Assembly: GCF_000007145.1 (NCBI RefSeq)
Contig: NC_003902.1
Coordinates: forward strand, 3,896,497-3,928,496
DNA: 32,000 nucleotides
DNA from: Xanthomonas campestris pv. campestris str. ATCC 33913
Lineage (GTDB): Bacteria > Pseudomonadota > Gammaproteobacteria > Xanthomonadales > Xanthomonadaceae
Direction of reading: 5' to 3'
Shown: in pieces, positions 13,209 to 30,364 of the stretch
How the letters are laid out: the number at the start of each line of letters is the position of its first letter
Position numbering within the stretch: the stretch's first letter is position 1
Notes under the pieces: generated by a model
The model's database searches: none
What the model was told of the DNA's origin: nothing
Seen by the model: only the letters and a program-made list of their open reading frames with translations
Program-made: the position numbers and the translations under genes

Positions 13209-13788
13209 ACAGGGGGAGGACGGCCGCCAGCCTGTGCAATTGTTACAGCGCCGGCGCTCGGCTTGAGCTGCGCAGGGATGCAGCCAATTCCGGCTACCCA
13301 GGCCAGGGAATGCCTGTACCGCAATGCCTTCTGGTTCCGGCTGGCGCCTTGCCGCGCCCGCTCTCTATTGACCGTAACCGCGCCTGGCAAGGAGAGTGCC
13401 AGGCCGGCAAATGCCGCGATCGACTGTAGGGATTTTCTTACAATAACTGGCAAAACAAGCCAGGCCGCGCCTGGGCGACTTCCCTCGGGAATACAGCCCT
13501 ACCTCATTAGTAGAAATTTGGTTAAGTGTGTGCCAAAGTTCGCACCAAACCTGCCTCATCGCGCATAAGGATCATGGCCCAGCAGGCAATCATCTCCAGT
13601 CTTCCCCGGTGGTCAGCCAGTGCCGCCAGGGACGCTGTGTCCGCACAAACGGCCTCACTCACTCGCGACAAGCGCATGATTTATAAAGCCGCACCGTGCC
13701 GCTGAACGCGCATCTGGCATTCATTGCTGTTTCTGCTGTCGTTGTTCCTGCCACCCCTCTTTACCCGAAAAGATCGACGAGACTCGCC

Positions 13789-14550
13789 ATGACCGTACGC
13801 TCCCGCCGCCTCCGCCATCCGATTTTCCGCCTTGCCGCCGGCCTGCTGCTAACCATCGGCCTGTGCGCAGGCTCCGCCAACGCGCAAGTGGTCATCGTTA
13901 ACCCGACGGGAGAGGGAAAGGATATTGCGGAGTATGCGGAACAGGCCAAGCGCTGGACCGAGACGATCAAGCAGTACCAGCAGGAGCTGGATCATTACAA
14001 GCAGCAACTCATCAATTTGACGAGCTTGAACTTTCTGCGCCCCCCCTTGGACGATAAGTTCGTCTTGCGGGAACCAGGCTATGGCCTTGAGTTTACCTGT
14101 CCAGGAGCACAAGCCAGCGGCATCGCGGGCATTCTCGAGCAGATCAAGTCCATCGCACCCACGATGAACGGGAATATGGCGGAGGAGCAGCTGAAGGTCT
14201 GCGCCCGCATTGTCATGGCGCAAAACTCCCAATACAACGAATCGGTCACCATGCTCAAGCGCTTGGTGCAACGTAACACCGAATTTGAGGCCATTGAGCG
14301 CCAGCGCGGTAGAGTGGGTACTAAACAAGGCGCATTGGCAGCCAACGATAACGAAGTAAAGCGTTTCACGGCACGTAATGCGCTGGAAATGAGTCATTGG
14401 GAAGCCAAGATGAAAGCCTACGATGTCTATATTGCGGGACTCAAGGATGACCAGACCCTGCTGGCCAAGCGCGCGCTTGAAGGCGACAAGGGCAATTTGC
14501 TGGGACAGGTCGTGCAAGCAGCAGCATTGAAGATTGCGCTGTCCAAATGA
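13789..14550 (+). CDS. virB5: Type IV secretion VirB5/TrbJ-like protein
   Basis: Track ORF 13696..14550 (GTG) trimmed to the ATG at 13789, giving the signal peptide MTVRSRRLRHPIFRLAAGLLLTIGLCAGSANA. The mature N-terminus QVVIVNPTG..IAEYAEQAKRWTETIKQYQQELDHYKQQLINL resembles the VirB5/TrbJ helical opening. It lies immediately upstream of a virB6 homologue. Confidence 0.65.
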   Translation: MTVRSRRLRHPIFRLAAGLLLTIGLCAGSANAQVVIVNPTGEGKDIAEYAEQAKRWTETIKQYQQELDHYKQQLINLTSLNFLRPPLDDKFVLREPGYGLEFTCPGAQASGIAGILEQIKSIAPTMNGNMAEEQLKVCARIVMAQNSQYNESVTMLKRLVQRNTEFEAIERQRGRVGTKQGALAANDNEVKRFTARNALEMSHWEAKMKAYDVYIAGLKDDQTLLAKRALEGDKGNLLGQVVQAAALKIALSK

Positions 14551-14597
14551 ATTAGCGGGCAACCAAAGCCCAGATCACGACGCACAGGCAAACAGCA

Positions 14598-15719
14598 ATG
14601 GACGTTTTTTTTCATGGCGCGGCAAGCTGGCTGCAGCCGCTTGCGGACGCCAATCTCGGCGACTTCGTTTTCTTCAAGCTGGTCAACGATTACTTCAACC
14701 GGGAAATCCAGGAATTTGGCCTTGAGCTGATGAAGCGGGCCATGAAGTGGGTCAGCGCGATCGCGCTGACGGTCACCACGCTGTGGGTGCTGATCTTGGG
14801 TTACCGCATCGCCACCGGGCAGTCGCGCGAGAGCGCGATGGCCACCATGATCAAGGCCGCCAAGGTTGCAATCATCATCAGCCTGGCCTCGGCCCTCGGG
14901 GTCAACGGCGCCATGCTGCACCAGACCATGACCGAGAACCTGGACAAGGAAATCCATCGCCTGTTCACAGGCGATGAGGGCACCGCCGCCGATGCCATCG
15001 ACGAGAACCTGGCCTACACACAGGTCGCAATGGCCACACTGGATGCGGTGCGCGTAGATCCGGCCCAGCCGGAAGTGCTGGAGAAAAAAGGTCGCGCCAT
15101 GCTCATGGCAGGCTTCGGTACCGCCAGCCCACCGATGGCCGCAGGCGCGATGCTGTTGCTGTTCAAGTTCACCATGGCCTTCTTGATCGGCATCGGGCCG
15201 ATCTTCATCCTGGCGCTGGTCTTCGACCAGACCAAGGACCTGTTCAAGAAGTGGCTGTTCTACGTCATCGGCACCTTGTTCTCGATGTCCATGCTGTCGG
15301 TGGTGACGGCCATGGTGCTCAAGTTCACTGCCAAGGTGGCCGCCGCCTACTGGGCGGTCAAGTTCATCCCCCTGGCCAGCGCCGAAGGCCTCTCCAGCCA
15401 GGCGCTGCAGCAGGGTGGCATCGGCCTGATCATGACCATGCTCATCGTCACCGTACCCACCATCGCCGCCGCACTATGGCAGGGCAATATGGGCACGTTC
15501 ATGGCCTACTCGGCGTTTGGGGCTGCAGCAAGCCCAGGACCACAGGGGCAGCCGGCTGGGTCGTATATGCCTAGGCAAGATGCGCCGAATGGAGACAGCA
15601 AAGCTAGCTCCAATATAAACACTACTAGGGCAGCTACAGGCACCCCCGCTGATTCTCAGCAAGTAGCACCCAGTTACGTTGGTAACGCTATAAAGAATAA
15701 TGACGGCCGTCTTCTGTAG
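14598..15719 (+). CDS. virB6: Type IV secretion VirB6/TrbL-family inner-membrane protein, copy 1
   Basis: 373 aa, polytopic. TrbL/VirB6-like core AGAMLLLFKFTMAFLIGIGPIFILALVFDQTKDLFKKWLFYVIG. Unique hydrophilic C-terminal tail (RQDAPNGDSKASSNINTTRAATG...). Confidence 0.85.
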   Translation: MDVFFHGAASWLQPLADANLGDFVFFKLVNDYFNREIQEFGLELMKRAMKWVSAIALTVTTLWVLILGYRIATGQSRESAMATMIKAAKVAIIISLASALGVNGAMLHQTMTENLDKEIHRLFTGDEGTAADAIDENLAYTQVAMATLDAVRVDPAQPEVLEKKGRAMLMAGFGTASPPMAAGAMLLLFKFTMAFLIGIGPIFILALVFDQTKDLFKKWLFYVIGTLFSMSMLSVVTAMVLKFTAKVAAAYWAVKFIPLASAEGLSSQALQQGGIGLIMTMLIVTVPTIAAALWQGNMGTFMAYSAFGAAASPGPQGQPAGSYMPRQDAPNGDSKASSNINTTRAATGTPADSQQVAPSYVGNAIKNNDGRLL

Positions 15720-15788
15720 CAGAATATATGGAACTAACAACATTTACGCCATCATTATCACAAGCAAAAATATATTTACGAATTATAA

Positions 15789-16337
15789 ATGAATAAGAAA
15801 ATCGTAACTTTAATCCTTTTAAGCTTCTTAAGCTTTTTTTCGCCGAGTTCTTTCGCAGAAGGTAATTGCCCCCCAGGGCAGTATCCTATTGGCGGACAAG
15901 GCGCCGTAGCGTGTGCACCCATTCCTCAGGACGGCAACTTAACTCAGCAGCCTGCCCGACCTCTCGGAAAATGGATAAAAACTTGGGGAGCAATTGCGAT
16001 GGGATGGATGGGACCTGTTCCATACTACGCAGTACCTACGGGAATGCTTTCCGAAACTGAGGCTGAGACAGAGGCGCTGGCGCGTTGCTCGAAAAAGGGC
16101 CCCAAAGATTGCGCAATTAAACTTACCTATTTCAATCAATGCGCTGCCATAGCCGAGCCGCAAACGGCTGAAAACCTGATACCAGATGGTAGCGTAACAA
16201 TTTTTACTGGGAATGCATCAATAGATGGGGCATCGAGCAAGGCAAAAGAAGAGTGTAAAAATCGGAACAAAGATTTTCCTGTGACATGCAAAGTGATCTA
16301 CAAAAATTGCTCGAAGCAAATTTTTCAAAAATTCTAG
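15789..16337 (+). CDS. Secreted Cys-rich DUF4189-like protein, cassette 1
   Basis: 182 aa. Signal peptide MNKKIVTLILLSFLSFFSPSSFA, then CPPGQYP...PLGKWIKTWGAIA...EAETEALARC...DCAIKLTYFNQCAAIAEP...CKVIYKNCSKQIFQKF. The WGAIA...C...C...NQCAA pattern matches my memory of DUF4189. Visibly AT-rich. Confidence 0.75.
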   Translation: MNKKIVTLILLSFLSFFSPSSFAEGNCPPGQYPIGGQGAVACAPIPQDGNLTQQPARPLGKWIKTWGAIAMGWMGPVPYYAVPTGMLSETEAETEALARCSKKGPKDCAIKLTYFNQCAAIAEPQTAENLIPDGSVTIFTGNASIDGASSKAKEECKNRNKDFPVTCKVIYKNCSKQIFQKF

Positions 16338-16503
16338 TTCCAATTGAAAAACAGCATTAATAGCCAGGGAAATGCCATGAAAAATCGTGCTCTCCTAGGT
16401 TTTTTGGCATCACCGCAACATAGATTGCACAGATTGCAGGTCGTGACAGTACCAGGTAATCCCCTGCTAAAATAACTAACCCTTCATCTTCTGTAAACTA
16501 GGC

Positions 16504-16734
16504 GTGTCCACAGATTGCTGGCTTCCTATTGATCCAGCCACGGACACATTTACAGTGAACAATCCGCAACGCTTCAACGCAGTATCCGCCCAGGTGTTTG
16601 CGCGCGTCTTCCCTATCGCGTACCCACGTGGCAGCCCCCAAAGTCCGAGCGTGCGGTACCGGGCAGTAATTGGCTTCTACTGCATCCATGGCGTGCAGCT
16701 TCCCAGGCAACGCTGGTTCACCTGGGCGTGTTAA
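16504..16734 (+). CDS. Conserved small ORF (DCWLP family), cassette 1 copy; GTG start directly after stops, possibly degenerate
   Basis: Core DCWLPIDPATDTFTVNNPQRFNAVSAQVFARVFP aligns with the copies at 20677 and 26350. Many conserved residues use different synonymous codons. Confidence 0.45.
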   Translation: MSTDCWLPIDPATDTFTVNNPQRFNAVSAQVFARVFPIAYPRGSPQSPSVRYRAVIGFYCIHGVQLPRQRWFTWAC

Positions 16735-16882
16735 CTGATACGTTGGCTCCTAAATTTATGCTGACCCTGACAATTCGCGTTGTTGCACTAGCGCGTTGTC
16801 AAGAGTAGCGCGGATCGCTCCATGCGCGGCTAAACTGCGCATCTTCATTGCGCAATGCGCGCAGGCAGCAAAAGCATCTCCA

Positions 16883-17536
16883 ATGAATCCCAAGATTTTC
16901 GGCCGTTTCGCTTTCCTCCTCGTGCCCTTCTTCCTTGCAGGATGCAAGCCCATGAATGCCCCCAGCGAACCTTCGTCTCCCTACAACGTCGACACCGATC
17001 CGGTCTATCGGAAGAACCCGCATCCGGAACAGGCATATCGCATCGCCATGACGATTGAAGACGCGCCTGGGCCGTTCGAATGGATCTCCGGCACAGCGTT
17101 TTACGAGATGACCAACCGCGATGCGTGCACGCCTTTTGATCGTTCGCTGGGAATGTCGACAAAGCAAAAAGAGGATGCAATCCCCATCCATTTCGACAAA
17201 ACCAGTGACACGACGTATGTGGCAACCATCTATGCCGATGGCATGGTCGATGCTGACTATTACGGCAAGGGCCTTTGCACCTTCGTACTCAATGGAGTTG
17301 GAATCTCATTGAGAGCGACTGGAAAAAAAGAAGAGACCCGATTCCAGCCTGCACTGTTCAAGAACGAGATTTATAGCTCAGCACCCAAGGTTACCTATTT
17401 TTGGAAAGAGCGTTACCCACAAGCAGGTATGGATGATTTTCCTGACGGTGGCGAAGCTAGGCTTGACCAATTCAATGATGACGCGCGGAAAAACATTTTC
17501 AAGGTGACCCTGACTACTGCTAAGGTGAATCCATGA
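16883..17536 (+). CDS. Lipoprotein, putative cognate immunity protein for lipase 1
   Basis: Track ORF 16796..17536 (TTG) trimmed to MNPKIFGRFAFLLVPFFLAGC (lipobox LAGC). Its stop overlaps the lipase start (ATGA at 17533-17536). It is paralogous to the genes at 21399 and 27099. Confidence 0.8.
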   Translation: MNPKIFGRFAFLLVPFFLAGCKPMNAPSEPSSPYNVDTDPVYRKNPHPEQAYRIAMTIEDAPGPFEWISGTAFYEMTNRDACTPFDRSLGMSTKQKEDAIPIHFDKTSDTTYVATIYADGMVDADYYGKGLCTFVLNGVGISLRATGKKEETRFQPALFKNEIYSSAPKVTYFWKERYPQAGMDDFPDGGEARLDQFNDDARKNIFKVTLTTAKVNP

Positions 17537-18879
17537 GCCTCACTAGCCAACAGTATGCAGTCCTTTCGAGAGACGTATACGACGAGCCGAAAAAGGTGGG
17601 AGAGAATAGCGACCCTGCAAACATTGGCGGTGAGTTTTATAAGCGGCTCAAATATGTAGATAGCCCATCGGGCTATCAAGGCATCGTCTATCAGCGAGTT
17701 GATACAAAAGAGATCATCGTCGCTCACCGTGGCACAGAGACTGAGCGGCAGCTCAAAGAAGATGGTCTGTACACCGATGGCGGCATGGTCACGGCACGCT
17801 ACAACAACCAAGCTGCCGAGGCACTTGAGTTGACCCGCTATGCGCTGAACTATGCCCACGAATTGGGCAAGGGCGGTAAGTCTCCTCAGGTCACCGTCAC
17901 TGGCCACTCGCTCGGGGGCGATCTGGCACAGGTCACGGCGCATCACTATGGCCTTAAAGGCGAGACCTTCAATGCGTACGGCGCGGTTAGCCTGGATCGC
18001 CGTATTCCCGAAGGTGGCTCGGATGTGATCAATCACGTGATGGCTGGTGATGCGGTCAGTGCTGCCAGCAAGCATTATGGTCAAGTCAAGATCTACGCCA
18101 CGCCACAAGAAGTCGCCACCTTGCAGAAGGCCGGTTACGCCAATGACCGCAGCCTGTTGGATGACCGCAATCCGGCGGTCGCCAAACCGCTTGGCGACTC
18201 GCATAGGATGCATAACTTCCTCCCTGTCGATGGCGACGGCAAGCCGGATCGCTCGGTGCTGGAAGACCCCAAATCACAGCAGCTGGCGCAGCAGTACGCG
18301 CCGATGATCGACAAGTACCGCGACGATGTGGCGCTGCTACGGGGCGGCCTGACCCTGGCATCGCGCAGGCTCCAGTCCATGGATGTGGTCGATGGCATCG
18401 ATCATCTGCGCGGCCCTCTAGCTCCGGGTGCCGGCGCGGCCGAGATAGCGGCAGAGCGCTGGAAGGAAACCCAACAGCGCATGCAGCGCGAAGACGCGCC
18501 GGTCTATGTGACCCCTGGCTGGAAGCTGCCCCTGGGCAATACCCCCGAGCGCTGCGTAGATCCAGGCGCGGCGGCCATGTCTAATGATCCGCTGTACCGC
18601 TCCATCCACAGCAAACTGCCCCAAGGCACCTCCGATGCCGTGGCCATGCATGCCACCGTCGAGGCCAAACGCGCTGGCATCGTCGACATTAACCAGCTGC
18701 GCAGCGTGACCGTGCAAGACGGCAACGCCTGGATCGTCGGCAACACGCCGGGCTTCCGGGCCAAGGTCGATCTGGCGGCGGAAGCACCGCCCGTGCAGGA
18801 AAGTTTGCGCCAGTCACAGGCTTTGGAGACGCAGCGATCGCAGGAGATGGCCCAGCCGTCGCCGACGCGTGTAATGTAA
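17533..18879 (+). CDS. Class-3 lipase/phospholipase with XVIPCD-like C-terminal domain (putative X-T4SS effector), copy 1
   Basis: 448 aa. IIVAHRGTE, nucleophile elbow VTVTGHSLGG (Ser codon 17908-17910), later GDAVS and GDSHRMHNF. The C-terminus is DPLYRSIHSKLP...AKRAGIVDINQLRSVTVQDGNAWIVGNTPGFRAKVDL...VQESLRQSQALETQRSQ. Confidence 0.8.
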   Translation: MSLTSQQYAVLSRDVYDEPKKVGENSDPANIGGEFYKRLKYVDSPSGYQGIVYQRVDTKEIIVAHRGTETERQLKEDGLYTDGGMVTARYNNQAAEALELTRYALNYAHELGKGGKSPQVTVTGHSLGGDLAQVTAHHYGLKGETFNAYGAVSLDRRIPEGGSDVINHVMAGDAVSAASKHYGQVKIYATPQEVATLQKAGYANDRSLLDDRNPAVAKPLGDSHRMHNFLPVDGDGKPDRSVLEDPKSQQLAQQYAPMIDKYRDDVALLRGGLTLASRRLQSMDVVDGIDHLRGPLAPGAGAAEIAAERWKETQQRMQREDAPVYVTPGWKLPLGNTPERCVDPGAAAMSNDPLYRSIHSKLPQGTSDAVAMHATVEAKRAGIVDINQLRSVTVQDGNAWIVGNTPGFRAKVDLAAEAPPVQESLRQSQALETQRSQEMAQPSPTRVM

Positions 18880-18883
18880 GGCC

Positions 18884-20068
18884 ATGATCAAGCGGATCGC
18901 ACCGATGACTGCCCCGATACCGACTGCCACTGCTGCAGGCCGGTGTGCGCCGCGCGGGACAAGCTGGTTGGGGCCCTTGGCCGATATCGGCTTCGGTGAC
19001 TTCATTTTCTTCAAACTTGTCAACGATTACTTCAGCAACGAGATCCAGAAGTTCGGGCTGGAGCTGATGCGCAACAGCATGCGCTGGGTCAGCACCATCG
19101 CACTGACGGTCACCACGCTGTGGGTGATGATCCTGGGCTACCGCATCGCCACCGGGCAGTCGCGCGAGAGCGCCATGGCCACGATGATCAAGGCCGGCAA
19201 GGTCGCCATCATCATCAGCATTGCCTCGGCACTCGGGGCCAATGGCGCCATGCTGCACCAGACACTGACCGAGAACCTGGACAAGCAAATCCATGGGCTG
19301 TTCACCGGCAAGGAAGGCAGCACTGCCGCCGATGCCATCGACGAAAATCTGGCCTATACACAGTTGGCGCTGACCGCGCTGGATGCGGTCCGTATCGAAC
19401 CCAATGACACCGAAGTGCTGGAAAAGAAGAGCCGGGCCATCTTCATGGCCAGCTTCGGCACCGCCAGCCCGCCGATGGCCGCCGGGGCGATGCTGCTGCT
19501 GTTCAAGTTCACCATGGCCTTCTTGATCGGGATCGGGCCGATCTTCATCCTGGCGCTGATCTTCGACCAGACCAAGGACCTGTTCAAGAAGTGGCTGTTC
19601 TACATCATCGGCACACTGTTCTCGATGGCCATGCTCTCGGTGGTGACGGCCATGGTGCTCGAGTTCACCGCCAAGGTGGCCAAGGCCTACTGGGCGGCAG
19701 AAATCATCATGCTCGGCAATGCCGAAGGCCTGTCGACCCAGGCCCTGCAGCAGGGCGGTATCGGGTTGCTCATGACGGTGCTGATCATCAGCGTCCCCAC
19801 AATGGTTGCGGCCGTATGGCAGGGCAACATGGGCAACTTCATGCACTTCTCGGCATTTGGGGGCGCCACCGCATCGAGCCCAGGACCGCAGGGGCAGCCG
19901 GCTGGGTCGTATGTGCCGCAGCAGATTGCGGCAAATAGGGATGGCGAGTCGGAAAAGCAGGTTTCGCAGGCAACAGCAACCAAGGTAACAGGCGCGCCAA
20001 CAACCCAAGTAACCCAGCCGATCGGTTCGCGCGGGCAAGCGGGACGAGGTGGCACGCAAGATGTTTGA
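18884..20068 (+). CDS. virB6: VirB6/TrbL-family protein, copy 2
   Basis: 394 aa with the same core as copy 1. It starts 4 nt after the lipase-1 stop. Unique tail IAANRDGESEKQVSQATATKVTG.... Confidence 0.85.
   Translation: MIKRIAPMTAPIPTATAAGRCAPRGTSWLGPLADIGFGDFIFFKLVNDYFSNEIQKFGLELMRNSMRWVSTIALTVTTLWVMILGYRIATGQSRESAMATMIKAGKVAIIISIASALGANGAMLHQTLTENLDKQIHGLFTGKEGSTAADAIDENLAYTQLALTALDAVRIEPNDTEVLEKKSRAIFMASFGTASPPMAAGAMLLLFKFTMAFLIGIGPIFILALIFDQTKDLFKKWLFYIIGTLFSMAMLSVVTAMVLEFTAKVAKAYWAAEIIMLGNAEGLSTQALQQGGIGLLMTVLIISVPTMVAAVWQGNMGNFMHFSAFGGATASSPGPQGQPAGSYVPQQIAANRDGESEKQVSQATATKVTGAPTTQVTQPIGSRGQAGRGGTQDV
19001..19924 (+). repeat. 924-bp near-identical direct repeat, copy A (virB6-2 core)
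   Basis: Manual alignment with 23550-24473 at a constant offset of 4549 bp gives 6 mismatches and no indels. Confidence 0.9.
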
Positions 20069-20118
20069 TAAGTTTGATCCAAACTAATTAACTATGTCGC
20101 CGTATAGGTTAGATATTC

Positions 20119-20634
20119 ATGAAGCACTTAGCTCTCCTGGCTTTACCAATTTTCCTTATCTCTGCTTGCGCAAGGGCAGAGCAGGGATGTCCCCCAGGAC
20201 AAATCCCTGCTCAATCGAACGGGAGCATTACTTCGTGCGGGCCGATTCCTGCCGGATATAACCAAGAGCAGCCGGCTTCCTCACCACGCCCTCTTGGCAA
20301 ATGGATAAAAACCTGGGGGGCGATTGCTAGTGACAATGAAGGCGGGAATCTCGGCGTATCGACAGACAATTTAAAAAGAAAACAGGCCGAGAAGGAAGCG
20401 GTTAAACAGTGCGAGGGAGAAAGCCGAAAAAAATGCAAGGTCGTTATGTCGTATGAAAATCAGTGTATTTCAGTTGCCAGGCCTGATGGCAGCGGAACTA
20501 TCACCTTTACTCGCGGCCCCTCTGCTGAAAATACAAGTAAGGACGTACTGGCAGACTGCCAGAAAGAGAACAGTGGCAGCAAATGCAGCATAATCTACGA
20601 AAACTGCACTAAACAGATCTTTAAATCCTTCTAA
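20119..20634 (+). CDS. Secreted Cys-rich DUF4189-like protein, cassette 2
   Basis: 171 aa. Signal peptide MKHLALLALPIFLISACARA (possible lipobox ISAC), then CPPGQIPAQ...PLGKWIKTWGAIA...NQCISVARP...CSIIYENCTKQIFKSF. Confidence 0.75.
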   Translation: MKHLALLALPIFLISACARAEQGCPPGQIPAQSNGSITSCGPIPAGYNQEQPASSPRPLGKWIKTWGAIASDNEGGNLGVSTDNLKRKQAEKEAVKQCEGESRKKCKVVMSYENQCISVARPDGSGTITFTRGPSAENTSKDVLADCQKENSGSKCSIIYENCTKQIFKSF

Positions 20635-20676
20635 AATCGATATCGATTTTTAAAAAGTAAGTTTTCATGGGAAAGT

Positions 20677-20844
20677 ATGGGTCTATTAGGACTGCCACTG
20701 GTCCCAGATTGCTGGTTGCCAGTGAATCCGGCGACCGGGGCATTGACGGTCATCGCCCCATACCGCTTCAACACGGTCTCGGCACAGATGTTTACACGTA
20801 TCTGCCCGAACGCATTTCTAACCCCTGACAACGTTCGCTGTTAG
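20677..20844 (+). CDS. Conserved small ORF (DCWLP family), cassette 2; the only copy with an ATG start and intact frame
   Basis: Below the ORF-track size cutoff. My translation is MGLLGLPLVPDCWLPVNPATGALTVIAPYRFNTVSAQMFTRICPNAFLTPDNVRC (55 aa). Against copy 1, 13 of 21 identical residues use different synonymous codons by my manual count. Confidence 0.55.
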   Translation: MGLLGLPLVPDCWLPVNPATGALTVIAPYRFNTVSAQMFTRICPNAFLTPDNVRC

Positions 20845-20871
20845 TTGAGTAAAGCGCGTCGGAGCTGAGTA

Positions 20872-21402
20872 ATGCATAGAGTGCTGCCCCCGCATAAAGC
20901 AGGTGGGTACCGGTCAGCCGCCGGGGTACGCAACATGCTGACCATTCTCTTGCTGATAACCTTACTCACCGCTAGTTTGGTAGTCTTGGCCTATCGCACT
21001 TCGATCGGCGGCCTAATGGAACTTGCACAGTGTGCAGCCATCATCGGAGCCGCCCTGCACTTCGCCATCGTCATACTGCTTGTGGGGTTTGTTGCACGAG
21101 CCCTGGCTGTCTGGAGAAAGCTGCACGCAGAAGGAAAACAGACGAGCGAACTGAAACAGTTGCAGCGAGTCATCGTCAGTGGAACTACTATGACGTTACT
21201 GATGTTTCTTCTCGCTGTCATTGCAGCTTGCGTTCCCCCATTGATGAAGATAATGACGCAGGTCCCAGAATTCGGAGTGGTCTTCGCTCTGATGCTCGTG
21301 GCATTGTTGCTTCATAACGTCAACATCAATCGCATATGCAGACTACTGACCGATGCCATCACAGCCGCGCAGCAGGCGGCACAACGTACGATGGCAGCAT
21401 GA
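20872..21402 (+). CDS. Four-TM membrane protein of unknown function, cassette 2
   Basis: 176 aa with four hydrophobic segments (LTILLLITLLTASLVVLAY; AAIIGAALHFAIVILLVGFV; TMTLLMFLLAVIAACVPPL; FGVVFALMLVALLL). Its stop overlaps the lipoprotein start (ATGA at 21399-21402). The paralogue is at 26572. Confidence 0.75.
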   Translation: MHRVLPPHKAGGYRSAAGVRNMLTILLLITLLTASLVVLAYRTSIGGLMELAQCAAIIGAALHFAIVILLVGFVARALAVWRKLHAEGKQTSELKQLQRVIVSGTTMTLLMFLLAVIAACVPPLMKIMTQVPEFGVVFALMLVALLLHNVNINRICRLLTDAITAAQQAAQRTMAA

Positions 21403-22055
21403 TCGGTTATCTGAAAATCAAGATTTTTGACTGTCTTTTCCTGGTTCTCTTAGCAGGATGCAACCCCATGAATGCTGCTTCTGAAAGACACGACGCTAGC
21501 GACACTACTGCTGACGGCGATCCGGTCTACCGCAAGAACCCGCGTCCGACGCAGGCATACCGGATCACGATGACCATCGAGGATGCGCCCGGGCCGTTTG
21601 AGTGGGTGTCGGGGACAGCATTCTATGAAATGACCAACCACAAGCAATGCACGCCAATCGAACCAATTGCAGGTGTCTGGAATAAATCCAGTGAAGACGG
21701 GATCCCCATCCACTTTAATAAAATCAATGACACCACCTATGTGGCGACGATCTACGCAGATGGAATGGTTGATGCGGATTATTACGGCAAGGGAGCATGT
21801 TATTTTGAGTTGGACGGAGTTGGAATTTCCCTGAAAGCGACCGAAAAGCATGAAGACACACGCTTTCAGCCGGCCCTGTTTAAAAATGAGATTTACAGCC
21901 CGGCCCCAAAGGTTACTTACTTTTGGAAAGGACGCTACCCAAAAGAGGATATAGACAACTTCCCTGATAGCGGCAGATCAAGAATCGACCAATTCAATGA
22001 CAATGCCCGCAATGACATCTTTAAAGTCACTCTGACTACTGAAAAGGTGATTTAA
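21399..22055 (+). CDS. Lipoprotein, putative cognate immunity protein for lipase 2
   Basis: Track ORF 21336..22055 trimmed to MIGYLKIKIFDCLFLVLLAGC (lipobox LAGC). Its stop overlaps the lipase-2 ATG (TAATG). Confidence 0.8.
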   Translation: MIGYLKIKIFDCLFLVLLAGCNPMNAASERHDASDTTADGDPVYRKNPRPTQAYRITMTIEDAPGPFEWVSGTAFYEMTNHKQCTPIEPIAGVWNKSSEDGIPIHFNKINDTTYVATIYADGMVDADYYGKGACYFELDGVGISLKATEKHEDTRFQPALFKNEIYSPAPKVTYFWKGRYPKEDIDNFPDSGRSRIDQFNDNARNDIFKVTLTTEKVI

Positions 22056-23431
22056 TGAGCCTTACGAGCCAACAGTACGCGGCGCTCTCTGACGATGCGT
22101 ATAAAGAGCCGCGAGAGACGGGCCTGGATAGTCGCCCTGCAGATATTGGCGGCATTACTTACAAGCGCCTTGAGTATGTAGACAGTCCTTCAGGCTATCA
22201 GGGCATCATCTACCAGCGGATCGACACCAACGAGATCATCGTCGCTCATCGCGGCACCGAGACTGAGCGTGAGCTCAAGCAGGATGGTGTCTACACCGAT
22301 GGCGGCATGGTCGCAGCACGTCACAATCGCCAGGCCGCCGAAGCCATTGAGTTGACCAAGCATGCGTTGGTCTATGCACAAAAACTAGGCAAGGACGGCG
22401 AAGCACTCGACGTCACCGTCACCGGCCATTCCCTCGGCGGCAACTTGGCCCAGGTCACCGCCCACCACTACGGCCTCAAGGGCGAGACTTTCAATGCCTA
22501 TGGCGCAGTCAGCCTGGATCGGCGCATTCCCGAGGGCGGTGTCGATGTCATCAATCATGTGATGGCAGGCGATGCGGTCAGTGCTGCGAGCAAGCACTAC
22601 GGCCAAGTGAAGCTCTATGCCGCGCCGCAGGAGATTGCTACGCTGGAAAAGGCCGGTTACGACAACACACGCGGTGTTCTGGACGTACGTAATCCTATCG
22701 TTGCAAAGGAGTTGGGCGACTCGCACCGCATGCACAACTTCCTGCCGGTGGATGCCAACGGCGCGCCGGATCGCTCCGTTCTGGAAAACCCCAAGGCGCA
22801 GCAGTTGGCGCACAAGTTTGCGCCGATGATCGACGAGTACCGTGATGACGTGGAGGTGTTGCGCGGCAGCGTGGCCTTGGGTGTACGCGGTAATTATGGC
22901 CTGGCGGACGATGGAATCGATGCCTTGCGTGGCACCCTAGCACCCGGCGCCGGAACGAAAGAGATGGCAGCGGCGCGCTGGCAGGAGGTGCGGCAGCGCA
23001 TGGAGGCAGAGCATCAGCAGCAGTACGTGCCACCCGGCTGGAAGATACCATTGGGCGCATCCGGCAGCGAAGTGGATGCACCGGCAACGCCGCGTGGTCG
23101 GTTTGGCGAGCCTGCATCCGCGTCGGTTCCCAGCGATCCGCTTTATCAGGCCATCCACAGCAAACTCCCTGCAGGCACTTCGCCGGCCGAGGCCATGCAC
23201 GCTACGGTCGAGGCCAAACGTGCAGGCATCGTTCGTCCCGATCAGTTGCAAAGCGTGACATCGCATCAAGACAGTGTCTGGATCGTCGGACAGACACCCG
23301 GCTTCCGGATCAAGGTGGATTTGTCCGAGACCGTGCCTCCCCTGCAAGAAAGTATCCGTCAGTCGCAGGCACTGGATACGCAGCGGTCGCAGCCGGACAT
23401 GACTCAGCAACCGCCCGCACGTGTAATGTAA
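22055..23431 (+). CDS. Class-3 lipase/phospholipase with XVIPCD-like C-terminal domain, copy 2
   Basis: 458 aa. VTVTGHSLGG (Ser codon 22430-22432). C-terminus DPLYQAIHSKLPAGTSPAEAMHATVEAKRAGIVRPDQLQSVTSHQDSVWIVGQTPGFRIKVDL...LQESIRQSQALDTQRSQ. Confidence 0.8.
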   Translation: MSLTSQQYAALSDDAYKEPRETGLDSRPADIGGITYKRLEYVDSPSGYQGIIYQRIDTNEIIVAHRGTETERELKQDGVYTDGGMVAARHNRQAAEAIELTKHALVYAQKLGKDGEALDVTVTGHSLGGNLAQVTAHHYGLKGETFNAYGAVSLDRRIPEGGVDVINHVMAGDAVSAASKHYGQVKLYAAPQEIATLEKAGYDNTRGVLDVRNPIVAKELGDSHRMHNFLPVDANGAPDRSVLENPKAQQLAHKFAPMIDEYRDDVEVLRGSVALGVRGNYGLADDGIDALRGTLAPGAGTKEMAAARWQEVRQRMEAEHQQQYVPPGWKIPLGASGSEVDAPATPRGRFGEPASASVPSDPLYQAIHSKLPAGTSPAEAMHATVEAKRAGIVRPDQLQSVTSHQDSVWIVGQTPGFRIKVDLSETVPPLQESIRQSQALDTQRSQPDMTQQPPARVM

Positions 23432-23435
23432 GGCC

Positions 23436-24623
23436 ATGATCGAGCGGATCGCACCGATGACTACCCCGATGCCCACTGCCACGGCAGCCCGGTGTGCGCC
23501 ACGTGCGGCAAGCTGGTTGCAGCCCTTGGCCGATATCGGCCTCGGTGACTTCATTTTCTTCAAACTGGTCAACGATTACTTCAGCAACGAGATCCAGAAG
23601 TTCGGGCTGGAGCTGATGCGCAACAGCATGCGCTGGGTCAGCACCATCGCACTGGCGGTCACCACGCTGTGGGTGATGATCCTGGGCTACCGCATCGCCA
23701 CCGGGCAGTCGCGCGAGAGCGCCATGGCCACGATGATCAAGGCCGGCAAGGTCGCCATCATCATCAGCATTGCCTCGGCACTCGGGGCCAATGGCGCCAT
23801 GCTGCACCAGACACTGACCGAGAACCTGGACAAGCAAATCCATGGGCTGTTCACCGGCAAGGAAGGCAGCACTGCCGCCGATGCCATCGACGAAAATCTG
23901 GCCTATACACAGTTGGCGCTGACCGCGCTGGATGCGGTCCGTATCGAACCCAATGACACCGAAGTGCTGGAAAAGAAGAGCCGGGCCATCTTCATGGCCA
24001 GCTTCGGCACCGCCAGCCCGCCGATGGCCGCCGGGGCGATGCTGCTGCTGTTCAAGTTCACCATGGCCTTCTTGATCGGGATCGGGCCGATCTTCATCCT
24101 GGCGCTGATCTTCGACCAGACCAAGGACCTGTTCAAGAAGTGGCTGTTCTACATCATCGGCACACTGTTCTCGATGGCCATGCTCTCGGTGGTGACAGCC
24201 ATGGTGCTCGAGTTCACCGCCAAGGTGGCCAAGGCCTACTGGGCGGCAGAAATCATCATGCTCGGCAATGCCGAAGGCCTGTCGACCCAGGCCCTGCAGC
24301 AGGGCGGTATCGGGTTGCTCATGACCGTGCTGATCATCAGCGTCCCCACAATGGTTGCGGCCGTATGGGAGGGCAACATGGGCAACTTCATGCACTTCTC
24401 GGCATTTGGGGGCGCCACCGCATCGAGCCCAGGACCGCAGGGGCAGCCGGCCGGGTCGTATGTGCCGCAGCAGTCGTCTAGGTCTACAGATCGGCCTACT
24501 GAGGTTGCGAACGACACACCCAGAACAGTATCCCGCGCAGTCGGTCAACCGGGAAGCTCTGATTCTATTCCTGTGCCAGGTTCTCGCGGCAATGCCGGAA
24601 GAAATGAAAGTGGCAATGCCTAA
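23436..24623 (+). CDS. virB6: VirB6/TrbL-family protein, copy 3
   Basis: 395 aa. The core is almost nucleotide-identical to copy 2. Unique tail SSRSTDRPTEVANDTPRTVSRAVG.... Confidence 0.85.
   Translation: MIERIAPMTTPMPTATAARCAPRAASWLQPLADIGLGDFIFFKLVNDYFSNEIQKFGLELMRNSMRWVSTIALAVTTLWVMILGYRIATGQSRESAMATMIKAGKVAIIISIASALGANGAMLHQTLTENLDKQIHGLFTGKEGSTAADAIDENLAYTQLALTALDAVRIEPNDTEVLEKKSRAIFMASFGTASPPMAAGAMLLLFKFTMAFLIGIGPIFILALIFDQTKDLFKKWLFYIIGTLFSMAMLSVVTAMVLEFTAKVAKAYWAAEIIMLGNAEGLSTQALQQGGIGLLMTVLIISVPTMVAAVWEGNMGNFMHFSAFGGATASSPGPQGQPAGSYVPQQSSRSTDRPTEVANDTPRTVSRAVGQPGSSDSIPVPGSRGNAGRNESGNA
23550..24473 (+). repeat. 924-bp near-identical direct repeat, copy B (virB6-3 core)
   Basis: See 19001-19924. 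Sequence identity breaks abruptly at both ends, at the N-terminal leader and at the C-terminal tail. Confidence 0.9.
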
Positions 24624-25156
24624 GATTGCTTGGTTTTGAGCCATACACGAGGTTGTATGAATATGACATCTAATCGATTTTTTTTGCTTCTTCTTTTGAT
24701 CATTGGGCTTCCGTCAATGGCCGAGCAGGGCTGTCCACCTGGACAAATTCCTGCGCAGGCAAACGGCAATATCACCTCCTGCGGTCCAATTCCCTCCGGT
24801 TATTACGAGCAACAGGGCTCTGCCGCCCCTCGGCCGATTGGAAAATGGATTAAGACCTGGGGAGCTGTTTCACTTGATGGCTCGGGTACTGTAGGAGTTG
24901 CCTACGGTAAACTTTCTAAGCGTGAAGCACAGCAAGGTGCTATTTCCAGTTGTGTCGAGGCTGGTGGCGAAAAGTGTCATGACTGGGCTACCTATTATAA
25001 CCAGTGCGCAGCTGTTGCAGAACCTTACAAAGATGGAAAATCCATTGGTGGAAAATTACAATTCGTTGGAGGCGCGGCACTTGAACAAGCCAAAGCTGAT
25101 GCAGAGAAGAAATGCACTGTCGCAAATAATAGCTCATGCCGAGTAATTTACTCTAA

Positions 25157-26315
25157 GGAACCTCTGAACAACGCACCACAGATACGCGACACTACCCGCC
25201 TGATGTTGAGGGGTGATCCATGCAACTGACGTTCGGTGACGCTGAGGGCCTGGGCAAGCGCAAGCAGACGCGCCGGGAGATCTTTCTGGCCGAGATGGAG
25301 CAGGTCGTCCCGTGGCAGCAACTGCTCGGGCTGGTCGCGCCGCACTATCCGGTCTCGGGGCGGCCAGGTCGGCAGCCGTACGCACTGGCGACGATGTTGC
25401 GGATTCATCTGCTGCAGCAGTGGTATGCGTTGAGCGATCCGGCGATGGAAGAAGCACTGCACGAGATCCCGACCTTGCGGCGCTTTGCCCAGCTCGGTGG
25501 CTTGGACAACGTTCCGGACGAGACCACGATTCTCAACTTTCGCCGCCTGCTGGAGACCCATGGCCTTGCCGCGCGGATGCTGGAAGCGGTCAACGCGCAT
25601 CTGGCGCGCAAGGGCCAGAGCCTGCGGTCGGGCACGATCGTCGATGCGACGCTGATCGCGGCGCCCAGTTCGACCAAGAACGCCGACCATGCGCGCGACC
25701 CTGAGATGCATCAGACCAAGAAGGGCAATCAGTGGTATTTCGGGATGAAGGCGCACATCGGCGTGGATGAATTTTCCGGGTTGGTGCACCACGTCCATTG
25801 CACAGCCGCCAACGTCGCCGATGTCACGGTGACGCACGCATTGCTGCATGGCAAAGAAGACAGCGTGTTTGGCGACAGCGGCTACACCGGTGCGGATAAG
25901 CGCGAAGAACTGCAGGACTGCGAGGCTGCATTTTTCATTGCTGCCAAGCGTTCGGTGCTTCAAGCCATCGGCAACAAGCGGGAGCGTGCTCGGGAACAGC
26001 GCTGGGAACACTTCAAGGCCAGCGTGCGTGCGAAGGTGGAGCATCCGTTCCGGGTGATCAAGCGCCAGTTCGGTTACACCAAGGTCCGCTATCGCGGCCT
26101 GGCGAAGAACACCGCGCAGGTGCTGACGCTGTTTGCGCTGTCAAACCTGTGGATGAAGCGAAAGCAGTTATTGCCTGCTATGGGGAGCGTGCGCCTGTAA
26201 CGCAGGCAACACCCTGCAAACGCGCCGGAAACGGCAAAAAAATCGAGGATCTGAGCGCCGTCAGCCTGGCCGATGTAGTTGGGCTCATCCTCCGACGCCG
26301 TTGATCAGACCATCC
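25157..26315 (+). mobile_element. IS5-family insertion sequence (IS5 subgroup), 1159 bp
   Basis: Terminal inverted repeats GGAACCTCTGAACAACG (25157-) and the complement of CGTTGATCAGACCATCC (-26315) match at 13/17 positions. They are flanked by a 4-bp direct repeat CTAA (25153-25156 and 26316-26319), the classic IS5 target. Single transposase ORF. Confidence 0.9.
25220..26200 (+). CDS. IS5-family DDE transposase
   Basis: 326 aa. MQLTFGDAEGLGKRKQTRREIFLAEMEQVVPWQQL...DPEMHQTKKGNQWYFGMKAHIGVD...VEHPFRVIKRQFGYTKVRYRGLAKN is closely parallel to the E. coli IS5 transposase as I recall it. Confidence 0.95.
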   Translation: MQLTFGDAEGLGKRKQTRREIFLAEMEQVVPWQQLLGLVAPHYPVSGRPGRQPYALATMLRIHLLQQWYALSDPAMEEALHEIPTLRRFAQLGGLDNVPDETTILNFRRLLETHGLAARMLEAVNAHLARKGQSLRSGTIVDATLIAAPSSTKNADHARDPEMHQTKKGNQWYFGMKAHIGVDEFSGLVHHVHCTAANVADVTVTHALLHGKEDSVFGDSGYTGADKREELQDCEAAFFIAAKRSVLQAIGNKRERAREQRWEHFKASVRAKVEHPFRVIKRQFGYTKVRYRGLAKNTAQVLTLFALSNLWMKRKQLLPAMGSVRL

Positions 26316-26349
26316 CTAATTGTTCTGATCAAATTTTTAAAAAGTTTTG

Positions 26350-26544
26350 ATGTACTACAAGATGGTTGGCGCTCTCTCAGTTTGTTAGTTGCCAGTAAAT
26401 CCGGCGACCGGCGCCTTTACGGTCACCAAACTATACTGCTTCAAAGGGGTCTCGGCACAGGTGTTTGCACGCATCTGTCAAAGGCATTTCCTACCGGCAA
26501 TCCTAAATAGTGCGTCCCGAACCCCTGACCACATTCGCCGTTAG
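26350..26544 (+). pseudogene. Conserved small ORF (DCWLP family), cassette 3 copy, inactivated by an in-frame TAG
   Basis: The ATG at 26350 overlaps the restored DUF4189-3 stop (TGATG). The reading is MYYKMVGALSVC-stop-LPVNPATGAFTVTKLYCFKGVSAQVFARIC.... The TAG at 26386-26388 replaces the conserved TGG (Trp) of the other copies. The track ORF 26301..26510 is in a different frame. Confidence 0.55.
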
Positions 26545-26571
26545 TTGAGTAAAGCGCGCCGGAGTTGCGTA

Positions 26572-27102
26572 ATGCATAGAGTGCTGTCCCCGCATGACGC
26601 AGATGGGTGCCGGTCAACCGCCGGCGTACGCAACATGCTGACCATGCTCTTGCTGACAACCTTACTCACCGCTAGTTTGGTCGTCTTGGCCTATCGCACT
26701 TCGCTTGGTGTCCTAATGGAATTTGCACAGTGTGCTGCCATTATCGGAGCCGCCCTGCACTTCGCCATCGTCGCAGTGCTTGTGGGGTTTGTTGCACGAG
26801 CCCTGACTGTCTGGAGAAGGCTGCACGCAGAAGGAAAACAGACGAGCGAACTGAAACAGTTGCAGCGGGTCATCATCAGCGGAGCCGCTATGACGCTGCT
26901 GATGTTTTTTCTCGCCGTCATTGCAGCTTGCATCCCACCATTAATGAAGATAATGAAGCAGATTCCCGAATTCGGGATGGTGTTCGCGCTGATGCTCATG
27001 TCCTTGTTGCTTCATAACGTGAACATCAACCGTATCTGCAAACGACTGACCGCTGCCATCACGGCCGCGCAGCAGGCTGCACAACGCACGATGGCAGCAT
27101 GA
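26572..27102 (+). CDS. Four-TM membrane protein of unknown function, cassette 3
   Basis: Track ORF 26545..27102 (TTG) trimmed to the ATG homologous to 20872 (MHRVLSPH...). Highly similar to the cassette-2 copy; its stop overlaps the lipoprotein-3 start. Confidence 0.75.
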   Translation: MHRVLSPHDADGCRSTAGVRNMLTMLLLTTLLTASLVVLAYRTSLGVLMEFAQCAAIIGAALHFAIVAVLVGFVARALTVWRRLHAEGKQTSELKQLQRVIISGAAMTLLMFFLAVIAACIPPLMKIMKQIPEFGMVFALMLMSLLLHNVNINRICKRLTAAITAAQQAAQRTMAA

Positions 27103-27606
27103 ACGGTTATCTGAACATCAAGATTGTTGGCTGTTTTTTCCTGGTTCTCTTAGCAGGATGCAACCCCATGAATGCTGATTCTGAAAGACACGACACCAGC
27201 GAGACTATCGCCGAGGGCGATCCGGTTTACCGCAAGAATCCACATCCGACGCAGGCGTACCGGATCACGATGACAATCGAAGATGCGCCTGGGCCGTTCG
27301 AGGGGGTGTCGGGGACCGCATTTTATGAAATGACTAACCGAGATACATGCACGCCAATTGATCGATCATTAGGCATGTCGACAAAGCAGAAAGAAGATGG
27401 AATTCCCATCACTTTCGAAAAACTCAACGACACAACATACGTGGCGAAGATTTATGCCGACGGAATGGTCGATGCAGATTATTACGGGAAAGGCACCTGT
27501 AATTTCGAGCTGGATGGTGTCGGCATTTCGCTCAAGGCGACCGTGACCTGCCCCCGCTGAGCCGTACCACGTGAAGCTGTAAAGTCCGTCAACCACGAGG
27601 ACGGAC

Positions 27607-27873
27607 ATGAAGAAGAGTCGTTTCACCACCGAGCAGATCATCGGATTCATCAAGCAGGCGGATGCCGGGATGGCGGTGGCTGAGCTGTGCCGCCAGCACG
27701 GTTTCAGCCCGGCCAGCTTCTACCAGTGGCGGGCCAAGTACGGCGGCATGGAGGCCGAAGACGCGAAGCGCCTGAAGGAGCTGGAGCAGGAGAACAACCG
27801 CCTGAAGCGGTTGCTGGCCGAGGCGCACCTGGACATCGAGGCGCTGAAGGTCGGGTTCGGGGTAAAACGCTAG
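27607..27873 (+). CDS. IS3-family transposase OrfA (HTH)
   Basis: 88 aa. [47 protein letters not shown] followed by a leucine-zipper-like [19 protein letters not shown]. Confidence 0.9.
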
Positions 27874-28739
27874 CCCCGCAACGCAAGCGCGAGGCAATCC
27901 GGCGCATGTGCGAGCTGACGTCGATCAGCGAGCGCCGGGCTTGTCGCCTTGCGGGGATCTCCCGCGATGCTTTCCGCCACGCGCCGACACCCACGCCGGC
28001 GACGCAAACCCTGTCGGCCAGACTGGTGGAACTGGCGCAGGCGCGTCGCCGCTTCGGCTATCGCCGCCTGCACGACCTGCTGCGCCCGGAGTTTCCGCAG
28101 GTGAACCATAAGAAGATCTACCGTCTGTACCGCGAGGCGAAGCTGAGCGTGCGCCGGCGCAAGAAGGCCAAGTTCCCGGCGGCACAGCGGCAGCCGTTAC
28201 GGCCAGCGCGGCATCCCAACGAGGTAATCAGCATGGACTTCGTCTTTGATCAGTTGGCCAGTGGCCGCCGCATCAAATGCCTGACCGTCGCCGACGACTT
28301 CACCCATGAATGCGTGGACATCGCGGTGGACCATGGCATCAGCGGGGCTTACGTGGTGCGTGTGCTGGAGCAGATCGCCTGCTTCCGCGGCTATCCCCGC
28401 GCGGTGCGCACGGACAACGGCCCGGAGTTCACCAGCCGCGCCTTCATCGCTTGGGCACAGCAGCGTGGCATCGAACACATCCTGATCGAACCCGGCAAAC
28501 CCATGCAGAACGGCTACATCGAGAGCTTCAACGGCAAGTTCCGCGACGAATGTCTCAACGAACACTGGTTCACGTCGCTGATCCAGGCTCGCGAGGTCAT
28601 CGCCGATTGGCGGCGTGACTTCAACGAGGTACGTCCGCACAGCAGCTGTGGTCGCATCCCGCCAGCGCAGTTTGCCTCCAACCACCGAGCACAAACCGGC
28701 AACAACGCAGTACCCTTCAACCCCGGGCTTTATCAGTAA
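27687..28739 (+). CDS. IS3-family transposase OrfB (DDE catalytic domain), expressed as an OrfAB fusion by a -1 frameshift
   Basis: Coordinates are the open frame from the track. Homology-bearing sequence starts near 27873 ([27 protein letters not shown]...). DDE region WVSMDF-like [36 protein letters not shown]. The frame is -1 relative to orfA. I could not pinpoint the slippery site. Confidence 0.85.
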
Positions 28740-28983
28740 TCACTGGTATGGCCGGTGGGGGCAGGTCAACCGGAAAGCATGAAGACACGAGGTTTGAGCC
28801 AGCTCTATTCAAAAATGAGATTCATAGCAGAGCTCCTAAAGTCACTTATTTCTGGAAAGGCCGTTATCCCAAAGAAGATATTGACAACTTCCCAGACAGC
28901 GGAAAAGTCAGACTGGACCAGTTCAACAATGATGCCCGAGGAAACATATTTAAAGTTACGCTAATCACGGAAGAGGTAATGCC

Positions 28984-30360: not shown

Positions 30361-30364
30361 GGCC

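Follow-up and report, generated by a model that had tools for sequence, protein, structure and literature searches.

How can two genes of one tandem array remain almost identical over most of their length when the genes on both sides of them are old and diverged? This question is raised by a chromosomal locus of Xanthomonas campestris pv. campestris ATCC 33913 that lies in a 32,000-nt stretch of contig NC_003902.1 (the window; coordinates are positions in it, with position 1 as its first letter). It represents the virB5/virB6 part, displaced from the remainder, of the antibacterial X-type type IV secretion system (X-T4SS) of X. campestris; in ATCC 33913 and 8004, the X-T4SS genes are split between sites, and virB5/virB6 are located apart from the other vir genes (PMC6536674). 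The array starts with a virB5-like gene, continues with three cassettes that are each headed by a full virB6 gene and closes with a virB6 fragment (virB6-4'). An earlier note on this DNA, made from the sequence alone, counted three virB6 copies, although the array contains four paralogues, the fourth of which is the 5' fragment at 30365-30724. As judged by sequence comparison, the 0.93-kb virB6 core of copies 2 and 3 is very probably homogenized by homologous recombination, with the same repeats serving as crossover sites for cassette turnover.

The cores of copies 2 and 3 (19001-19924 and 23550-24473) differ at exactly 6 of 924 bp in an ungapped comparison and contain no indels, in agreement with the count in the earlier note. 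The mismatches are located at core offsets 17, 105, 647, 776, 819 and 902. Four of the six, rather than the three given in that note, are synonymous, and the two nonsynonymous differences are a T-to-A replacement at 19106 and a Q-to-E replacement at 19820. In an alignment of the three cassettes, the high-identity tract spans positions 18993-19924 and is delimited by mismatches at 18992 upstream and 19925 downstream. At the right edge, identity drops from ~99% to ~40% at the codon after ...SYVPQQ (19924/24473), which confirms the collapse at the tail start that had been noticed earlier. The left edge is a stepwise gradient, with ~84% identity in the virB6 leader and ~70% in the 3' end of the lipase gene. 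The core of copy 1 is ~83% identical to those of copies 2 and 3 at the nucleotide level. A GENECONV-type permutation analysis of copies 2 and 3, which the earlier note had proposed, yielded a longest matching run of 68 polymorphic sites, compared with a maximum of 29 in 10,000 permutations.

The age of the cores contrasts with that of their surroundings. The synonymous divergence (dS) of the core is 0.019 between copies 2 and 3 and 0.50 between copies 1 and 2. In the flanking genes, dS reaches 0.44 for lipases 2 and 3 (nonsynonymous divergence, dN, 0.065), 1.37 for lipases 1 and 2 (dN 0.20), 0.245 for the small membrane protein genes and 0.81 for lipoproteins 2 and 3, and it is saturated for the DUF4189 genes (dN ~0.5). 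The neighboring lipase and DUF4189 genes are accordingly far more diverged than the cores, as the earlier note had stated.

Clustered substitutions in sister strains, which were compared on the basis of exact-protein look-ups, capture the exchange between the two cores. The CP155988.1 genome is otherwise 99.95-100% identical to the window and exhibits 13 differences in ~17.6 kb. Eight of these are substitutions within 18955-19106 of copy 2, and all eight adopt the copy-3 state (binomial P = 6e-8). CP101178.1, which like CP155988.1 is a complete genome and near-clonal with the window, exhibits 7 differences in 18.6 kb; five are substitutions within 19106-19820 of copy 2, four of which adopt the copy-3 state (P = 6e-6). 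The two tracts lie in different segments of the core and hence represent two independent conversion events, with the core of copy 2 (18993-19924; 6 mismatches relative to 23542-24473) as the recipient. Clustered paralogue-state substitutions of this type provide direct evidence that gene conversion is ongoing. When strains are compared, the 17 sites that vary within the core are combined in mosaic patterns that fail the four-gamete test.

The repeats also delimit a unit that varies among strains. Four complete genomes (CP062066, CP066945, CP155934 and CP155987) and 10 metagenome contigs are devoid of one 4,549-bp unit. These two-copy strains match the window with 99.7-99.9% identity up to 19924 and then resume at 24474, and they encode a hybrid VirB6 that combines the copy-2 leader with the copy-3 tail. 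The hybrid is the commonest form of the protein (50 and 34 contigs), and the unit is missing from most X. campestris strains. This unit difference and the hybrids substantiate the earlier proposal that the ~0.9-kb direct repeats are substrates for cassette gain or loss. Among X. campestris protein variants, the N2, N3 and virB5-adjacent N1' leaders are combined with the T2, T3 and T2' tails on the same core. The two-copy hybrid was also considered as the product of a single crossover between the present copy-2 and copy-3 alleles, which is ruled out by the alternation of informative sites. Two-copy strains have also lost the DNA between the IS5 and IS3 insertion sequences (IS), and with it the small membrane protein 3 gene and the 5' portion of the lipoprotein 3 gene.

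Larger blocks are exchanged as well. In GCA_021864545.1, cassette 1 is wholly absent, and virB5 and the backbone are 64-87% and 96-99% identical to the window, respectively. Set against this backbone, the 99.2-100% identity of its cassettes 2-3 to the window points to a recent transfer of that block between lineages. Elsewhere, scaffold HG794502.1 differs from the window by tight clusters of single-nucleotide polymorphisms (SNPs) at 10413-10619 and 30988-31336 in an otherwise near-identical backbone, which are typical of ordinary homologous imports between strains. Strain-specific gene content at this locus appears to have been detected previously: a DUF4189 gene (XccR6-60) and a 239-residue open reading frame (ORF) to which a TrbL domain was assigned (XccR6-67) are polymerase chain reaction (PCR) markers specific to race 6 and to strains CN14-16 (PMC7542024). 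XccR6-60 appears to be DUF4189 gene 2, as matched by description and strain specificity only, and the XccR6-67 ORF appears to be that at 21336-22055, as matched by length and strain specificity only.

The same pattern recurs in other species. In a scan of species-representative genomes, virB6 copies in tandem, some complete and others partial, were identified in many members of Xanthomonas, Luteibacter and Stenotrophomonas. For the paralogues of X. campestris pv. asclepiadis, X. hortorum pv. hederae and X. vasicola, identity mostly amounts to 92-100% in individual 100-nt windows of the core and to 96-98% over its full length; the tails share ~30% identity, and the flanks look unrelated. In every pair examined, similarity stops at the same codon, after SY(V/M/T)PQQ. 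Several Pseudomonas-labelled records (CP124218.1 'Pseudomonas sp. nanlin1', here L021, and P0031, P0038 and P0095) carry virB5-virB6-DUF4189 loci of the Xanthomonas type. The L021 core is 98.9% identical, and its tail identical, to those of X. arboricola pv. populi, and these records are probably mislabelled or contaminated assemblies.

The C-terminal tails that follow the break were described in the earlier note as unrelated to each other and as diversifying, and neither description holds. Among 58 distinct Xanthomonas tails, nearly all contain 40-51 residues, with conserved R/K residues in the middle and a conserved C-terminal GSRGxAG motif, and tail families are common to several species; the tails are thus homologous. 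Polar or small residues account for 84-90% of their sequence, which makes them hydrophilic. With tails of other species or strains, the copy-2 tail shares 49-57% identity, compared with 28% for the copy-3 tail, which in turn is 41-47% identical to yet other tails elsewhere. The divergence of the tails is old. Between locus L079 and copy 2 of the window, dS is 1.09 in the tail, compared with 0.04 in the core. Within tail families, dN/dS is 0.2-0.55. Positive selection on the tails was rejected on the basis of these within-family values, and the value of 1.25 for copies 2 and 3 is derived from a saturated, unreliable alignment. The tails are old alleles under relaxed constraint and form part of a variable downstream module.

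Tail identity follows the identity of the DUF4189 protein encoded next in line (Mantel r = 0.75 and 0.90) far more closely than that of the core (0.27 and 0.45). This co-variation is predicted by linkage alone because the DUF4189 gene starts ~35-70 bp downstream of the virB6 stop codon. Likewise, the sharp right boundary requires no selection on the tail, since conversion tracts need homology on both sides and none is available beyond PQQ. The junction between core and tail is also a compositional boundary, as within the array (13500-30700) the virB6 cores contain ~60% GC and the DUF4189 and lipoprotein parts 44-51% GC, with 63-71% GC in the flanking chromosome. In a separate comparison of 14 loci, which include L016 versus L017, L018 versus L020, and L021, L025 and L026, identity in VirB5 is well correlated with that in the virB6 core (Mantel r = 0.82) and only loosely with that in the adjacent DUF4189 protein (r = 0.55). 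L016 and L017, for instance, are 99% identical in VirB5, 99% in the core, 33% in the tail and 48% in DUF4189.

Near-identical cores in a tandem layout with a 4,549-bp period are also the expected result of a very recent duplication of the whole cassette or of virB6 alone, with divergence of the flanks since then. The earlier note had offered gene conversion and very recent duplication as alternatives; the sister-strain tracts uphold the former, and the latter is highly unlikely, given a flank dS that is 10 to >50 times that of the core. Both flanks are old (tail dS ~0.8-1.3, in addition to the lipase and DUF4189 values above), the tail and DUF4189 types are closer to those of other species than to those of the neighboring cassette, and fresh paralogue-state tracts are present in sister strains. 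The contrast between flanking-gene dS and the core dS of 0.019 in itself excludes a recent whole-cassette duplication. Constraint on the sequence, exerted by strong purifying selection on VirB6 or by an overlapping antisense gene or RNA, would be compatible with the good conservation of the VirB6 core as a protein and with long antisense ORFs at 18689-20059 and 23310-24644. However, antisense ORFs of this type are a chance expectation in DNA of 60-65% GC and receive no support. Constraint at the sequence level is excluded, since other copies diverge freely at the synonymous sites of these codons (dS 0.50 between copies 1 and 2 and 0.26-0.96 between species). Moreover, dS between copies 2 and 3 does not equal that between orthologues, contrary to the expectation for constraint, which makes this explanation extremely improbable. 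The probability that the assembler duplicated or collapsed a repeat is negligible. Scaffold HG794502.1, which was considered as a strain without copy 3, has 100-N gaps flanked by IS ends at this location and is uninformative on copy number. However, CP101178.1, CP155988.1 and a 3.2-Mb contig of GCA_021864545.1, which were assembled independently, all contain the three-copy array. They reproduce the differences between the copies and carry tracts particular to each strain, and published PCR markers apparently target cassette 2, as matched by length and description only (PMC7542024).

Recent exchange between strains, with block import through virB6 crossovers and a lesser role for conversion within the genome, is a possible though less probable main source of the near-identical cores. 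The cassette 2-3 block shared between lineages with a 96-99% identical backbone, the clustered SNP imports elsewhere in the backbone, the A state at 19108 that CP101178.1 has in common with two-copy strains, and the identity of at least 98.8% among lineage-A cores across strains, whatever their position, all point in this direction. Nevertheless, import only moves the question, since in a genome of the donor type, too, the two cores are nearly the same and their flanks diverged, and the CP155988.1 tract, with eight of eight sites in the paralogue state, is most simply explained within one genome. A different proposal, a cassette-specific function of the tails, was raised in the earlier note. 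Selection would then maintain the differences between tails, each of which would act for the cassette that it belongs to, perhaps together with the adjacent DUF4189/Tpf protein or effector. The genus-wide co-variation of tail and DUF4189 types (r = 0.75-0.90), the module boundary at the same codon in all species and the conserved length and GSRGxAG motif, which indicate that the tails are not junk, are in line with such a role. It is unlikely, however, given that linkage predicts the same co-variation, that the within-family dN/dS values contain no sign of diversifying selection and that strains with hybrid leader/tail combinations are the majority. In addition, the published partner of Tpf is VirB5 and not VirB6 (preprint 10.64898/2026.05.09.723464), and the VirB6 C-terminus is cytosolic in A. 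tumefaciens and B. suis (PMC6536674), whereas DUF4189 proteins are periplasmic.

Several observations weigh against homogenization by recombination as a complete description. Homogenization is not universal. The X. hortorum ATCC 19865 and X. euroxanthea paralogues are only 72-96% identical and unconverted, and so are copy 1 and the copy-4 fragment in the window (83-88%), the latter being 83% identical to copy 2 and 88% identical to copy 1 at the nucleotide level. Homogenization operates only within a given core lineage. In the CP101178.1 tract, the 19108 G-to-A substitution does not match the copy-3 state and instead yields an allele found in two-copy strains; exchange between strains thus accounts for some of the mosaicism. 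Furthermore, the hybrid core haplotype is not what one crossover between today's alleles would produce, so that the 4,549-bp difference may be either a loss or a gain.

With these points taken into account, homogenization of the core by recombination can be formulated as follows. Repeated, non-reciprocal and presumably RecA-dependent gene conversion between virB6 paralogues very probably keeps the cores of copies 2 and 3 near-identical, with tracts that begin and end only within homologous sequence. Rightward, tracts would halt at the last conserved codons (SYVPQQ), where the diverged tail and DUF4189 modules offer no usable homology. Leftward, they would tail off in the leader and the 3' end of the lipase gene, where similarity is moderate, and thereby generate the gradient. 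Reciprocal or unequal crossovers in the same repeats probably delete or add one 4,549-bp unit and join an upstream module (virB5, or effector and leader) to a downstream module (tail, DUF4189 gene and following genes). Such reassortment of modules may occur both within one genome and between strains, and any selective benefit that it confers is presumptive. In a further extension, which is tentative and rather doubtful, the virB6 core could be a built-in, integrase-free recombination anchor, through which every captured module, composed of a VirB6 tail and DUF4189/Tpf, immunity and effector genes, would enter and leave by virB6 crossovers, and the function of each tail would fit the module that contains it. 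An anchor of this type is compatible with the position of the break, which is the same codon throughout the genus, with the co-variation of tail and DUF4189 and with the transfer of 7 kb as a block from one lineage to another.

The array occupies a low-GC island at 13.7-30.7 kb (44-62% GC, compared with 63-71% outside) that adjoins a phosphofructokinase gene, and all of its genes lie on the forward (+) strand. Within the window, the only other candidate T4SS gene beside virB6 is the single-copy virB5-like gene at the head of the array (13789-14550), directly upstream of virB6, with sub-threshold matches to VirB5/TrbJ-like families (TIGR02780 E=3e-7, PF07996 E=0.26); the remaining vir locus is located outside the window. 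Cassette 1 is composed of virB6, DUF4189, lipoprotein and lipase genes. Its virB6 gene (14598-15719; PF04610 E=1e-30) belongs to a separate core lineage. Copy 1 is decaying in CP101178.1, with two 1-bp deletions in virB6-1 (window 14605 and 15084), and carries an IS5 insertion in CP155988.1. The gene is followed by DUF4189 gene 1, which is XAC2611/Tpf-like (15789-16337; PF13827 E=1e-17), by lipoprotein 1, a putative immunity protein similar to X-Tfi (16952-17536), with a lipobox-like LAGC sequence, and by lipase 1, a putative X-T4SS effector (17533-18879; Lipase_3 23.1 bits, cut-off 22; DUF6792), whose start overlaps the lipoprotein gene by 4 nt. Lipoprotein 1 has no match among the protein families searched.

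Cassette 2 additionally contains a small transmembrane protein gene between its DUF4189 and lipoprotein genes. Copy 2 of virB6 (18884-20068; PF04610 E=8e-33) consists of a leader (18884-18992), the homogenized core (18993-19924) and a T2-type tail (19925-20065), which is a hydrophilic 47-residue segment with a GSRGQAGRGG motif. DUF4189 gene 2 (20119-20634; PF13827 E=2e-25), small membrane protein 2 (20872-21402), lipoprotein 2 (21399-22055), a putative immunity protein paralogous to that at 16952-17536, and lipase 2 (22055-23431), a paralogue of lipases 1 and 3, follow in this order. The small membrane protein ORF is common to cassettes 2 and 3 and has no match among the protein families searched.

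Cassette 3 has the same gene order and is interrupted twice. Copy 3 of virB6 (23436-24623; PF04610 E=9e-33) contains the core at 23542-24473 and the T3 tail at 24474-24620. DUF4189 gene 3 (24657-25156; PF13827 E=8e-20) is cut by an IS5-family element (25157-26315; DDE_Tnp_1 E=1e-37) with a CTAA target duplication, which has moved its last 10 codons to 26320-26349. This insertion is old because it is common to every examined X. campestris locus that extends that far. A homologue of DUF4189 is inactivated by C-terminal truncation (preprint 10.64898/2026.05.09.723464). Small membrane protein 3 (26572-27102) is a paralogue of that at 20872-21402. The 5' part of lipoprotein 3 (27099-27560) is split off by an IS3-family element at ~27541-28769 (rve/HTH_21 transposase; repeat offsets of 5700 versus 6929 bp); the element thereby interrupts the third putative immunity gene, and lipase 3 (28984-30360) is uninterrupted. 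The array is closed by the 5' fragment of virB6 copy 4 (30365-30724), which contains 119 codons and shares 80% amino acid identity with copy 2 over residues 1-115. The virB6 copies 2, 3 and 4' begin 4 nt past a lipase stop codon (TAAGGCCATG; 18877-18886, 23429-23438 and 30358-30367) and carry a leader of ~25 residues, which copy 1, located next to virB5, lacks. Three different virB6 start codons have been chosen by public genome annotations. Promoter and terminator scans yielded results at or below the shuffle expectation.

The family assignment of the virB6 genes is robust, with PF04610 scores of 107.6, 114.4 and 114.3 bits for copies 1, 2 and 3 (cut-off 25.9). A search retrieved 935 homologues, and the named ones among the matches listed are VirB6 or type IV secretion system proteins, chiefly from Xanthomonas; the nearest relatives of the three long ORFs are VirB6 proteins of X. 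campestris pv. campestris. A hydropathy scan of VirB6 indicates ~4-5 hydrophobic blocks and a 71-residue loop at residues 126-196. An AlphaFold2 model of VirB6-2, built with 44 homologues, has a mean predicted local distance difference test score of 46.5 and is unusable for topology or tail disorder.

The lipases display a marginal Lipase_3 match and a GHSLGG motif that aligns with a type VI secretion system lipase effector, and Lipase3 X-Tfes have been described (PMC6536674). They end in a Gln-rich region with a conserved ...RQSQALDTQRSQ...ARVM segment, which precedes the downstream virB6 copies in every species examined, as assessed by eye. For the ~120-residue XVIPCD, the C-terminal 141 residues gave no Pfam match at E<=5 and no match to the PDB, 7MU9 included, by phmmer or with a three-sequence profile, and a homologue search of the lipase C-terminus among 5.8 billion proteins returned only short unnamed fragments. 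As the XVIPCD is unconfirmed, the putative effector assignment rests on Lipase_3, gene order and the Gln-rich end. The DUF4189 genes score 64.6-89.6 bits against PF13827 (cut-off 25), and their translations have hydrophobic N-termini and conserved Cys residues. They begin ~34-70 bp past the virB6 stop codon, as XAC2611 homologues also sit directly downstream of virB6 (preprint 10.64898/2026.05.09.723464). The XAC2611 protein itself (trans-intoxication protection factor, Tpf; DUF4189) binds VirB5 and blocks fratricide (preprint 10.64898/2026.05.09.723464). In Xanthomonas sp. LMG 31884 (L024, 14817-18277), five tandem DUF4189 genes directly follow a lipase gene, with no virB6 gene between them.

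The recombination mechanism is textbook concerted evolution, and its setting is new. The tufA/tufB genes and rRNA operons evolve in concert by gene conversion, with homology-bounded tracts in dispersed housekeeping duplicates and RecA-type recombination presumed. The virB6 copies resemble them in being more similar within a genome than their age predicts and differ in being direct repeats 4.5 kb apart that flank warfare cassettes. Because accessory cassettes are flanked by direct repeats, recombination in virB6 also alters cassette content. The Rickettsiales (Rickettsia, Anaplasma, Ehrlichia and Wolbachia) have tandem virB6 paralogues that share a TrbL/VirB6 membrane core and differ mainly in their C-termini; these paralogues are anciently diverged, have C-termini extended by hundreds of residues and are not known to be interleaved with effector/immunity cassettes. 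In contrast, the X. campestris cores are near-identical and the tails contain only 45-49 residues. In Rhs and contact-dependent inhibition (CDI) orphan arrays, tandem toxin-immunity modules lie behind a conserved coding stretch, and homologous recombination leads to cassette gain, loss and swapping. There, the repeated homology is a toxin gene fragment, and recombination changes the toxin C-terminus, whereas the X. campestris repeat is a complete machine gene, virB6, the lipases are separate ORFs, and the exchanged material comprises a short VirB6 tail together with distinct DUF4189, effector and immunity genes.

The closest gene order is that of the X. citri vir locus, in which XAC2612 (virB6) is followed by XAC2611 (DUF4189/Tpf), XAC2610/XAC2609 (X-Tfi/X-Tfe), XAC2608/2607 (truncated virB6) and XAC2606 (DUF4189) (preprint 10.64898/2026.05.09.723464). 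The succession of virB6, DUF4189, immunity, effector, virB6 remnant and DUF4189 genes is alike. However, the second virB6 gene of X. citri is truncated, whereas the X. campestris array has three intact virB6 genes and a fragment, and the X. citri effector is a peptidoglycan hydrolase in place of the putative lipase effectors of X. campestris. The X. campestris locus is also detached from the other vir genes, and its cores are gene-converted and used for cassette exchange. X. euvesicatoria 85-10, for which a descriptive report lists four chromosomal virB6 copies (PMC10432156), similarly has tandem virB6 paralogues in a chromosomal X-T4SS-type cluster. For Xanthomonas, the literature searched contained no description of gene conversion in virB6 or of cassette turnover that is anchored in virB6, and it contained no analysis of homogenized cores, tails or cassette turnover for multi-copy virB6.

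X-T4SS loci determine which neighbors Xanthomonas and Stenotrophomonas can kill and which kin are spared. The array in the window offers a concrete mechanism for turnover in the content of these loci, in which a converted structural gene would be the crossover site for effector, immunity and DUF4189 modules, with a module boundary that lies inside virB6, at one codon, genus-wide. Such turnover would account for the race-6-specific DUF4189 and 239-residue ORF markers in X. campestris pv. campestris. It also presents a testable point for the Tpf-VirB5 kin-recognition model, as the same VirB5 can be accompanied by very different adjacent DUF4189 proteins and several of them may be present per strain. 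If the core were indeed a recombination anchor, strains would stockpile foreign Tpf and immunity genes against the machines of other lineages, together with extra effectors.

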